Assembly: GCA_013285585.1 (NCBI GenBank)
Contig: JABDHH010000001.1
Coordinates: 6,400-70,399, forward strand
Origin: Chlamydiota bacterium
GTDB taxonomy: Bacteria > Chlamydiota > Chlamydiia > Chlamydiales > SM23-39
Length of the DNA: 64,000 bases
Reading direction: 5' to 3'
This document shows positions 29,680 to 31,288 of this stretch, one piece after another (position 1 is the first letter of the stretch; each line of letters opens with the position of its first letter). The position numbers were made by a program, and so were the translations under genes. The notes beneath the pieces were generated by a model. It ran no database searches and had not been told where the DNA came from. It saw only the letters and a list, made by a program, of their open reading frames with translations.

Positions 29680-29985
29680 TTAATTGAGGCGCTCGATTTT
29701 TTTGTTTTCTAAGGTTTGGTCGAAGCCAGCTACAACGCCAGAAATGCCACATATAAGAGAGACAGCAGCAAAATTTGAAAGAGTAAATGCCGGCAACAAC
29801 TTATGTGAAGTGAATCGTTCTATCAGGGCCGCTCCTCCAAGAATAACAGCTGGAGCGTAAGCTATCGTTTTCCTTATGATTACATGATTTTTAAGGAACA
29901 TAGTAACCCTATTACGTGGGACGCTTCCTTCTTTTGGACGCACTGAACTAATTTGTGTCATAAACCACCTCTTAACTAACTCCAA
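29680..29985 (-). CDS. small 2-TM membrane protein (downstream partner of the 199-aa twin-CX3C protein)
   Basis: Hydrophobic segments IAYAPAVILGGAALI and FAAVSLICGISGVVAGF. The internal start MTQISS at 29961 would remove the 14-nt overlap. Confidence 0.45.
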   Translation of the reverse strand: MELVKRWFMTQISSVRPKEGSVPRNRVTMFLKNHVIIRKTIAYAPAVILGGAALIERFTSHKLLPAFTLSNFAAVSLICGISGVVAGFDQTLENKKIERLN

Positions 29986-30571
29986 CGGCCTTGGCGCTTC
30001 CGCAACAAGCTAAACAGCCTGGATATCCGGCTGGGGTAAACAAGATAGCAGTACAAGCAGCCTGAGCGGCTCCAGCTTTATCGTTCACAAAATACTTAAC
30101 ACCGGCTGAGAGCAGGTTTGTCACTGCTCTTCCTGCGCCTGAAATAGGATTAGAGCAAATTGATGTGCAATCGATATATCCGCCCACAAGCGGTGTCGCA
30201 ACCTTCCCGGGCGTTGATACAGTTTCCCATTTTCCGTTTTTCAACCCTTCTTTTACAGTTGTTTTAACCATTTCAGATCCATCTTGGCATGTTGATGTAC
30301 AAATCCGTTCTGGCAGATCTTCTTTACCGCCTGGAAGCGGCTCACAGAGTACATCGCAAACCACTCGATTCAATGATCCATCGTCATTCTTTACACCTAT
30401 ACCGAAACTAAATTTATTCGGATTAACATCCGCATCCGCTTTTGCCATTGGCAAACAGGACAAAGCATTTATTGCCAGAAATGCAATGCTCAACGTTCCG
30501 ATCATTTGTATTGGGTTTGTTCCGAGGGATGCAGAAAGAAAGTTGCTAGTCCCTACTGCTTGCAGTGCCAT
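29972..30571 (-). CDS. secreted Cys-rich protein with twin CX3C-X14-CX3C motif
   Basis: 199 aa. Leader ...LSIAFLAINALSCLPMAKA|DAD. Contains CDVLC-14 aa-CTSTC, a third CTSIC, and a C-terminal GCLACCG. Confidence 0.55.
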   Translation of the reverse strand: MALQAVGTSNFLSASLGTNPIQMIGTLSIAFLAINALSCLPMAKADADVNPNKFSFGIGVKNDDGSLNRVVCDVLCEPLPGGKEDLPERICTSTCQDGSEMVKTTVKEGLKNGKWETVSTPGKVATPLVGGYIDCTSICSNPISGAGRAVTNLLSAGVKYFVNDKAGAAQAACTAILFTPAGYPGCLACCGSAKAVGVS

Positions 30572-30742
30572 AAAAAACCTCTTTGGTTTTGAAATAAAGT
30601 CAAAAATAAGAAACAGACGAAATTCTTCAAACTAAAATATAAAATACACTGTTTGTAATTTTTTTTATTTAGGGTTGCGTCTAAATTTTTTGTGTTCTAG
30701 TGTTTTCCTCGTTTTTCAAAACCTTAAACCATTGAGGAGACC

Positions 30743-31060
30743 ATGACAGGACTAGCAATATCACGATATGGGATGAGCACCGGAATGTTTTCGCTATTAG
30801 CTGCGCCATTCACTTTGATTCAATTGGCTGACGCCGTTTCAAAGCTATCCGTTCCGCTTATTGGTTTGTATGCGCTATCTAATGTTCCCGTAGCAGACGC
30901 CAAACATCACTCTAAACCTACAGGCGGAAAGGGTGGGGGTGATATTTTCATAGATTGTATCAATGCTTGCGATGAGAATGGGAAAGATGCTCATGAAGTT
31001 GCAAAACTTTTTTGCTATGGTATGTGTGGATTGATAAGCCTATTCAAGAAAGACAAATAA
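30743..31060 (+). CDS. small secreted Cys-rich protein with twin CX3C-X14-CX3C motif
   Basis: 105 aa. GAGGAG RBS upstream. The leader ...LSVPLIGLYALSNVPVADA|KHH resembles that of the 199-aa protein. Contains CINAC-14 aa-CYGMC. Confidence 0.55.
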   Translation: MTGLAISRYGMSTGMFSLLAAPFTLIQLADAVSKLSVPLIGLYALSNVPVADAKHHSKPTGGKGGGDIFIDCINACDENGKDAHEVAKLFCYGMCGLISLFKKDK

Positions 31061-31075
31061 GAATCGTGAGGTCAA

Positions 31076-31288
31076 ATGAAAGAACTGATGCTTAGTCCAA
31101 TAGGGATGTCAGTAATCTTGGTTGTGAGAATATTCTTAGGATCGCTGTGTTTGTGTGGCGGGACCCATTTGTTTGGCTTCAAAAACCTTACCCCATTTTT
31201 TTCATGGAAAAGGGTGGTAGGCATTGGCTTGCTGACATTCGGGTTGCGGCTGCTTATCGACGCTATATTCTGCTTCAATCTTACGTAA
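31076..31288 (+). CDS. small 2-3-TM membrane protein (downstream partner of the 105-aa twin-CX3C protein)
   Basis: 70 aa and very hydrophobic (GMSVILVVRIFLGSLCLCG, VVGIGLLTFGLRLLIDAIF). Starts 15 nt after the preceding stop. Confidence 0.4.
   Translation: MKELMLSPIGMSVILVVRIFLGSLCLCGGTHLFGFKNLTPFFSWKRVVGIGLLTFGLRLLIDAIFCFNLT

Follow-up and report, generated by a model that had tools for sequence, protein, structure and literature searches.

An accessory four-gene cassette of Chlamydiae pairs predicted Sec-exported twin-CX3C proteins with small membrane proteins

The locus and its four genes

In the present study, we describe four genes, designated A, B, C and D, at positions 29,680 to 31,288 of a 64,000-nucleotide (nt) stretch of DNA from a Chlamydiota bacterium (lineage SM23-39; GenBank assembly GCA_013285585.1, contig JABDHH010000001.1, positions 6,400 to 70,399 of the forward strand), hereafter the window. 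Gene A (29972..30571, minus strand), an open reading frame (ORF) preceded by the Shine-Dalgarno site AAAGAGG, encodes a predicted exported, Cys-rich protein of 199 amino acids (aa), and gene C behind it (29680..29961, minus strand; site AAGAGGTGG) encodes a membrane protein of 93 aa with two hydrophobic segments in its hydropathy profile. Gene B (30743..31060, plus strand), an ORF with the site GAGGAG, encodes a predicted exported mini-protein of 105 aa and is followed by gene D (31076..31288, plus strand; site GTGAGG), which encodes a membrane protein of 70 aa with two transmembrane (TM) segments. A first-pass annotation, made from the sequence, had described A, B and D with these same coordinates. 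It had also recognised C as a gene, which stands, but had started it at TTG 29985, whereas the likely start is ATG 29961 with its own Shine-Dalgarno site; this codon lies 10 nt past the stop codon of A, AAGAGGTGG overlaps that stop, and a gene caller independently gives 93 aa. D starts 15 nt past the stop codon of B.

It is well supported that these genes form an accessory cassette specific to Chlamydiae, so far to environmental Chlamydiae, and that the cassette consists of two two-gene operons, A→C and B→D, each predicted to encode a Sec-exported, CX3C-stapled protein and then a small inner-membrane protein. The cassette has a G+C content of 42%, compared with 46.9% for the whole window, in which no further paralogues of the four genes were found. 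When the 400 stop-to-stop segments of the window with 60 aa or more were scanned, a twin CX3C motif with a spacer of 8-20 residues was present in A and B only, and composition-preserving shuffles regained it in 1.1% of the trials with A and in 0.03% of those with B. The repeat scan gave no meaningful repeats, and a weak terminator-like hairpin, a consensus match only, lies immediately past gene C (29661..29678, minus strand). Defined in this way, the cassette has a Cys architecture that is unusual for bacteria and offers parts that can be tested: a predicted cleavage site in each exported protein, 14 Cys in all and the two very small membrane proteins.

The gene callers disagree at D, which speaks for the explanation that the ORFs arose by chance or are annotation artefacts: D is annotated by NCBI and JGI, and several other callers miss it, with Logan and ENA giving antisense or overlapping ORFs of 68-82 aa at this place (31072-31278, minus strand, and 31147-31395, plus strand, in the window; 1001-1237, minus strand, in the related locus L012). 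Nevertheless, all four proteins are kept across saturated synonymous divergence with ratios of nonsynonymous to synonymous substitution (dN/dS) below 1, amounting in pairwise comparisons, in which the synonymous divergence was saturated or near-saturated, to 0.21-0.33 for A, 0.28-0.38 for B, 0.21-0.59 for C and 0.10-0.26 for D. The variability of the three codon positions of D (0.35/0.17/0.53) is a normal coding pattern that fits the D frame, unlike the antisense frame, and the gene order is kept. An origin as artefact is effectively refuted by these observations, its chance being practically nil, and the annotation of D is corrected accordingly.

Signal peptides of A and B

The first-pass annotation had considered A and B to be secreted, and both indeed begin with predicted Sec-type signal peptides, as judged from hydropathy and a conserved AXA/VXA site. 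In A, the predicted signal peptide comprises aa 1-46 (30434..30571, minus strand), with a polar, uncharged n-region of 22 aa (MALQAVGTSNFLSASLGTNPIQ), a single hydrophobic core at aa 20-43 and the motif LPMAKA/D, in which the slash marks the putative cleavage site; cleavage would thus follow residue 46. In B, the predicted signal peptide extends over approximately aa 1-53, the hydrophobic stretch at aa 12-51 is longer than the core of A, and cleavage after residue 53 would leave a mature peptide of about 52 aa. The -3/-1 residues are A/V-x-A in essentially all A homologues, and in both families the residue at -1 is small, that at -3 is A, V or I, and a Pro stands a few residues upstream. Leader ends such as AKA/D, VKA/D, AQA/R, AEA/A, ADA/K, VEA/K, VEG/K and similar ones are observed, and the leaders of A and B appear to follow the signal peptidase I pattern. 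Both leaders are unusually long and well conserved. Export by the twin-arginine translocation system was considered and rejected, as no RR motif is present, and A was rejected as a lipoprotein, since the lipobox-like ALSC in its leader is not conserved and reads ALSN in the homologues.

The leaders of the two proteins had been described as related. A weak likeness does exist, confined to the leader end ALSN[LV]P.A.A (BLASTP E=0.007; hhalign E=7e-4, probability 26%), but a clear duplication of the modules is not borne out: the alignment of A with B is limited to the end of the signal peptide, and a comparison of C with D revealed no similarity, so that the two modules are not demonstrable duplicates.

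Protein A

The mature part of A contains 10 conserved Cys, eight of which make up four CX3C motifs, the other two being C173 and C189. C72, C76, P78, C91, C95, C135, C139 and C173 are invariant, and C186 and C190 near-invariant, in alignments of 17 and 6 sequences. The first twin CX3C, CDVLC-EPLPGGKEDLPERI-CTSTC (30287..30358, minus strand), comprises C72, C76, C91 and C95, and the Pro/Gly-rich core of its spacer, PLPGxKxDxPE, is conserved. The third CX3C, C135-TSI-C139 (30155..30169, minus strand), is invariant in alignment A6, and the fourth, C186-LAC-C190 (30002..30016, minus strand), contains C189; the homologue P0026 has CMALC instead, with C186 and C190 retained and C189 lost. C135/C139 and C186/C190 would make a second twin CX3C of A with a long spacer. 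The description of A and B as two Cys-rich proteins with a twin CX3C motif holds for the motif; the first-pass annotation overlooked that A actually has four CX3C, two more than were noted.

The motifs CDVLC-X14-CTSTC in A and CINAC-X14-CYGMC in B were given exactly, and their Cys do not vary among the aligned full-length homologues. The spacing X14 cannot be regarded as fixed, being 11 in two lineages of B and 13 in two relatives of A (P0004 and P0005). In the window, the Cys of the twin CX3C stand at the identical residue numbers 72, 76, 91 and 95 in A and B; this numbering is a coincidence, because a comparison with homologues indicates that A of the window carries an insertion of approximately 16 aa after the signal peptide.

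Five close homologues of A were found, with 44-54% identity, and a profile search of 1.84 billion representative proteins gave 23 representatives at E ≤ 0.001; the A family is real but very small. The AlphaFold2 model of A, computed from 6 sequences, is unusable (predicted local distance difference test score, pLDDT, 42), and draws the first twin CX3C as beta strands.

Protein B

The twin CX3C of B, CINAC-DENGKDAHEVAKLF-CYGMC, lies at 30956..31027 (plus strand). Two homologues of B are in the databases, including P0008, and further copies were found in the related loci L002, L005, L007 and L012; no intact homologue lacks any of the four Cys. The spacer has 14 residues in the window, in P0008/L012 and in L005, and 11 residues in L002-4 and in the Rhabdochlamydiaceae copy of L007.

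AlphaFold2 modelled mature B (52 aa, two-sequence alignment) with a mean pLDDT of 71.5, and 73-85 over the folded part. In the model, a helix at residues 15-26 carrying C19 and C23 is joined by a five-residue loop to a second helix at residues 32-51 carrying C38 and C42. The earlier proposal of a stapled helical hairpin agrees with this modelled helix-loop-helix of B, with one CX3C per helix, but not with the beta strands in the low-confidence model of A. The second, C-terminal helix of B is hydrophobic in the hydropathy profile (LFCYGMCGLISLF) and is followed in all homologues by a Lys-rich tail; mature B is mildly basic, with an isoelectric point of 7.9-9.0. The predicted N-terminus of mature B (30902-30940 in the window) reads KHH, RHH or KHA in three lineages, and is Met-rich (SMPSMGKPVPGM) in L002 and P0009.

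A Foldseek search of the PDB with the mature B model gave 33 matches, none of which is significant (all E > 2) because the fold is so small. Five of these 33 are plant α-hairpinins or vicilin leaders (7lxk, 9q1l_C, 6o3q, 7uv2 and 6o3s; E 2.4-9.4), the proteins concerned being the Ara h 1 leader, Jug r 2, VBP-8, the Ana o 1 leader and Luffin P1. Luffin P1 (6o3s) superposes on the B model with a template modelling score of 0.55-0.60 and a root-mean-square deviation of 1.9 Å, in a match that is likewise non-significant. A search of BFVD with mature B gave no significant match.

The membrane partners C and D

Each exported protein had been said to be followed by a small hydrophobic partner, and this claim is confirmed: C and D both have two hydrophobic segments and are kept directly downstream in distant relatives. 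In C, the segments at aa 27-48 and 55-81, separated by a loop of about 6 aa, form a conserved hydropathy pattern between a polar, variable N-terminus of about 30 aa and a conserved, charged C-terminal tail, LENKKIERL. Homologues of C stand behind A in L002-L006. More divergent C-like genes in L007, L010 and L014 are barely detected by the C profile and keep the position, the two TM segments, FFxxH…RK before TM1 and RSLQ/ERNL after TM2. D is the most conserved of the four genes, with 37 invariant columns; its conserved residues include R18, C27, W44, R46, R58 and D62, and conserved charged residues lie inside the TM segments and a conserved Cys inside TM1. The small membrane gene is co-inherited directly downstream, C behind A and D behind B, in all loci with both ends on the contig, with the exception of deletions of a pair.

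Distribution, decay and divergence

The linked pairs A→C and B→D recur in five or more chlamydial lineages that have diverged from one another, and the two pairs occur in two orientations relative to each other. Every named relative belongs to the Chlamydiae, namely an uncultured Chlamydiae metagenome-assembled genome (L004) and metagenome-assembled genomes of Rhabdochlamydiaceae (L007-9 and P0028). The divergent arrangement, D←B and A→C, is found in the window, L002-4, L005 and L012/13, whereas in L007-9 the four genes follow one another on one strand as B→D→A→C. A→C is present in the window, L002-4, L005, L006, L007-9, L010 and L014, and B→D in the window, L002-4, L005, L007-9 and L012/13. 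In L010 the pair A→C lies beside ruvA/ruvC, in L014 it lies behind a transposase fragment, and in L011 A stands without B-D upstream. In L005, the divergent cassette has two tandem copies of C (3898-4308 and 4385-4711), which could be extra "immunity-like" genes.

The cassette is accessory and decaying, as indicated by its patchy presence, by the truncation of B past its leader with the loss of D in L006 and L015/16, and by a frameshift that three independent assemblies of Rhabdochlamydiaceae share at one position of A (L007 4770-5316, L008 and L009), with B, D and C open in them. The frameshifts of A and D in L003 are probably errors of long-read assembly, because the near-identical L002 and L004 are intact.

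The divergence is not uniform along the locus. A and B are separated by an AT-rich intergenic region of 171 bp (30572..30742), which presumably holds both promoters and shows 75-80% identity when the window is compared with L002, L015 and L006; a promoter scan of this region found no strong sigma-70 consensus and no signal above shuffles. The proportion of differing synonymous sites (pS) is 0.27-0.34 in the A leader and 0.62-0.76 in the mature coding parts, and the amino-acid identity between the window and L002 falls from 80% in the A leader to 48% in mature A and 32% in C. The block of promoter and leader (30434-30742) may either be constrained at the nucleotide level, for regulation or as mRNA, or recombine as a conserved head that is followed by cargo and partner genes in the course of diverging; the latter arrangement would resemble polymorphic toxin or bacteriocin loci.

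Comparison with known systems

The first-pass annotation had recognised no bacterial family in these proteins, and none was matched: scans of A, B, C and D against Pfam, NCBIfam, PHROGs and PADLOC gave sub-threshold noise only, the profiles of A and B (A6 and A2; E <= 1) matched no PDB sequence, and literature searches on chlamydial CX3C proteins or chlamydial bacteriocins yielded no relevant work. Several other candidates were rejected, namely a holin or lysis cassette, as no lytic enzyme is present; a conjugative pilin, as the mature parts are hydrophilic and Cys-rich; and a phage origin, as no relative was found in the viral contigs of IMG/VR.

The twin CX3C had been regarded as the signature of small Tim proteins. 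The motif is shared, and the likeness extends to a spacer in the range of approximately 11-16 residues (11-14 in the homologues), a helix-loop-helix in the B model, a location, predicted for A and B, in a compartment between two membranes and, as a loose parallel to Tim9-Tim10, two twin-CX3C proteins encoded together. The small Tims (Tim8/9/10/13) of mitochondria assemble as hetero-hexamers. They are chaperones of the intermembrane space, and their reduced twin CX3C binds Zn2+ (PMC3759932). However, neither A nor B gave a Pfam match to the small Tim profile zf-Tim10_DDP (PF02953) at E <= 1, and both carry a predicted signal peptide for Sec, to be cleaved off; small Tims lack a cleavable presequence and depend on Mia40 for import and oxidation. 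Mature B, with 52 aa, has no counterpart of the long "tentacle" helices at the two ends of small Tims, which moreover are essential, in contrast to the accessory, decaying cassette. Membership in the small Tims is rejected on account of the missing profile match, the predicted bacterial signal peptide and the accessory status, and the plant α-hairpinins appear to be the closer structural analogue.

α-Hairpinins are defined by CX3C-X4-20-CX3C in a helix-loop-helix with two disulfides, and are antimicrobial or trypsin-inhibitory (PMC11591084). Ribosome inactivation is a further activity in this group. Like EcAMP1, Luffin P1, the vicilin-buried peptides, VhTI and BWI-2c, mature B measures approximately 50 aa and has exactly four Cys, all in the defining motif (spacer 11 or 14), its precursor carries a predicted signal peptide, and it is modelled as an antiparallel helix-loop-helix with one CX3C per helix. 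In contrast to them, B is bacterial, without sequence homology to the plant peptides, and is encoded by a single-domain gene coupled to a 2-TM gene instead of being cut from a vicilin or multi-module precursor. A is far larger, has four CX3C and falls outside the criterion of no CC and no three or more extra Cys (PMC11591084 Table 1). Judged from the model, α-hairpinins would be the best structural analogue of B, and the likeness is most simply explained by convergence.

In terms of function, the closest model would be, by analogy, the class II bacteriocin or microcin systems with their immunity proteins. Class IIa microcins (MccV/Cvi) are grouped here with gallocin A on general microcin features. 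Gallocin A consists of two bacteriocin peptides, each a helical hairpin fixed by a disulfide, and a small immunity peptide (PMC10100652). With gallocin A, other class IIb and Sec-dependent class II bacteriocins and these microcins, the cassette would share small exported peptides with a conserved leader, two different ones side by side, a disulfide-fixed helical hairpin, a small hydrophobic protein encoded directly downstream and an accessory, mobile context. Unlike those of class II bacteriocins and microcins, the leaders of the cassette end in AXA and not in a double glycine, and sequence homology is lacking; furthermore, the producer is diderm and obligately intracellular, each hairpin would have two CX3C staples instead of one disulfide, and mature A, with 153 aa, is larger than the typical peptides.

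Interpretation of the cassette

Herein, we tentatively propose that A and B are Sec-exported, disulfide-stapled toxins or antimicrobial peptides and that C and D are their membrane immunity partners, a reading that we favour while placing it somewhat short of an even chance. According to this proposal, A and B would be exported via Sec, and signal peptidase I would remove the long signal peptide at AXA. The exported protein would then be oxidised outside the cytoplasm, where the paired CX3C would staple its fold, with two disulfides in the 52-aa, α-hairpinin-like helix-loop-helix of B and five disulfides in A, formed by its four CX3C and two further Cys. C behind A and D behind B would be small inner-membrane proteins with two TM segments, translationally coupled to the exported partner. 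A and B might serve as two membrane-active agents, either toxins or antimicrobial peptides, stabilised by disulfides, and the producer would be shielded by C and D as immunity proteins. We infer the cleavage of the signal peptide, the pairing of disulfides, the toxicity, the immunity and the target from the features described above.

This toxin-immunity proposal is favoured because of the gene order, the tight coupling and the co-inheritance of the pairs, their accessory status, decay and mobile context, and the retention of C where A is broken. The rise of divergence along the operon, from A leader to mature A to C, is what would be expected of a toxin-immunity pair behind a conserved export leader; B is modelled as α-hairpinin-like, with a hydrophobic second helix and a cationic tail; and gallocin A gives a bacterial precedent. 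The purifying selection on the four genes, the even number of invariant Cys, the conserved -3/-1 AXA and the adjacency of A-C and B-D, whether the pairs are divergent or co-directional (L007), were also counted in its favour. Several points weigh against it. There is no homology of A-D to any bacteriocin, microcin, toxin or immunity family, and no ATP-binding cassette (ABC) exporter or C39 peptidase is encoded among the neighbours within about 5 kb. Sec export alone reaches only the periplasm of a diderm cell, so that the outer membrane remains to be crossed, and obligate intracellular bacteria have a limited need for bacteriocins. At 66-69% identity, D has changed less than B (56-57%), an unusual property for an immunity protein, and the mature parts, with a ratio of nonsynonymous to synonymous differences (pN/pS) of about 0.4-0.5, show no sign of positive selection. 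Finally, the model of A cannot be used, and no fold match of B reaches significance.

Other explanations of the same features were considered. A and B may instead be directed at the host: after Sec export, type II secretion or a different pathway would deliver them to the lumen of the inclusion or to the host cell as stable, disulfide-rich effectors, which might for instance inhibit proteases or act on membranes, and C would be an Inc-like protein of the inclusion membrane. The accessory genomes of Chlamydiae are rich in effectors, ankyrin-repeat proteins adjoin the cassette in L003 and L004, and trypsin inhibitors are found among the α-hairpinin analogues (PMC11591084). C also fits the architecture used for Inc prediction, since its polar, variable N-terminus of about 30 aa, its bilobed hydrophobic domain of about 55 aa, which exceeds the minimum of approximately 40 aa, its short loop and its charged tail, predicted to be cytosolic, are all features of chlamydial Inc proteins; unlike these, C is coupled to a predicted Sec-exported protein and has no homology to a known Inc. 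Moreover, D is almost without an N-terminal extension for a type III secretion signal, the translational coupling of C and D to Sec substrates suggests joint work in the bacterial membrane, and no effector domain was detected in the family scans. A host-directed role seems unlikely, although it deserves consideration. The predicted Sec signal peptides and the many conserved Cys could also point to the envelope, where A and B might join or modulate the disulfide-cross-linked chlamydial envelope or serve as holdase-like helpers, with C and D as anchors or assembly factors. The elementary bodies of chlamydiae rely on disulfide-linked, Cys-rich envelope proteins (OmcA/OmcB), and the high conservation of D, with charged residues in its TM segments, would be expected of a specific assembly partner; the small Tim twin-CX3C proteins are likewise chaperones of the intermembrane space (PMC3759932). 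We consider such an envelope or periplasmic role rather improbable in view of the patchy distribution with repeated loss and decay, the setting among toxin-antitoxin (TA) and mobile genes and the tiny size of the family, which has 23 representatives in 1.84 billion proteins. Pfam holds models of chlamydial outer-membrane proteins, yet neither A nor B matched a family there, including those of the OmcA/OmcB type; the lipobox-like ALSC is not conserved, and paired CX3C suggest intramolecular staples over intermolecular cross-links.

The CX3C pairs and the CxxCC at the end of A could also bind Cu(I) or Zn in a module for periplasmic buffering or detoxification with membrane partners. The KHH/RHH/KHA N-termini of mature B, or its Met-rich SMPSMGKPVPGM, which presumably resembles Cu-binding motifs, and the conserved Cys within TM1 of D are in line with metal handling, as is the binding of Zn2+ by the reduced twin CX3C of small Tims (PMC3759932). 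However, conservation is lacking in these short stretches of His and Met, Cys pairs of exported proteins are as a rule oxidised, and no match to the copper-storage (DUF326), CopC, CusF or metallothionein families was obtained. No metal transporter or regulator lies nearby, a MerR-type gene (23565-24335) being 5 kb off with TA modules in between. In our judgement, metal handling is very unlikely.

Should the toxin-immunity proposal hold, the cassette would represent a new family of Sec-exported peptides with two disulfides per hairpin and dedicated membrane immunity proteins, and bacteria would have reached the twin-CX3C hairpin independently of plant defence peptides and mitochondrial small Tims. 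To our knowledge, peptide weapons directed at other bacteria or at the host are essentially undescribed in obligate intracellular bacteria. A more far-reaching idea, which we regard as a long shot, is that the eukaryotic twin-CX3C hairpin peptides have their first bacterial counterparts in B and in the CX3C modules of A. Chlamydial symbionts would then secrete them as stable antimicrobials to fight rival microbes inside the host cell, or would act with them on a compartment of the host, for example the mitochondria, and C and D would be a new type of membrane immunity protein. If this were true, a molecular handle on the symbiont-mediated protection of amoebae would be gained.

Genomic neighbourhood

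The cassette lies within a region of approximately 24.4-32.4 kb of the window, beside a tRNA-Asn gene (32406-32477), that looks like an accessory islet. Three TA modules were observed around the cassette, consisting of a nucleotidyltransferase-like ORF with HepT (24916-25558), Gp49 with HTH_37 (26995-27731) and Gp49 with an HI1420-type antidote (31454-32123). The setting described in the first-pass annotation, next to a tRNA and TA genes, was correct, whereas the Trypco2-like ORF named there (32115-32390, minus strand) remains sub-threshold, with 20 bits against the Pfam gathering value of 24.2 (E=8.5e-4). The toxin-immunity organisation that had been suggested by analogy would fit this context. 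Within about 5 kb of the cassette, the window contains TA genes, an aldo-keto reductase gene, tRNA-Asn and a RecD-like ORF, and in the relatives the neighbours include Gp49 toxins, a resolvase, DDE transposases, ankyrin-repeat proteins and an LPD38 polyvalent protein.

Some minor observations concern further genes around the cassette. A 1570-aa protein with an LPD38 domain, a large polyvalent protein of mobile elements, adjoins the cassette in L002 (1833-6545) together with a resolvase and a Gp49 toxin, with equivalents in L003 and L004, and a conserved ORF of 209/232 aa without a family match lies just downstream of D in these three loci. Two ORFs on the minus strand of the window also matched no family: one of 161 aa (28776-29261) shares 4 nt with the beginning of the aldo-keto reductase gene, and the other, of 270 aa (25935-26747), has a hydrophobic N-terminus.

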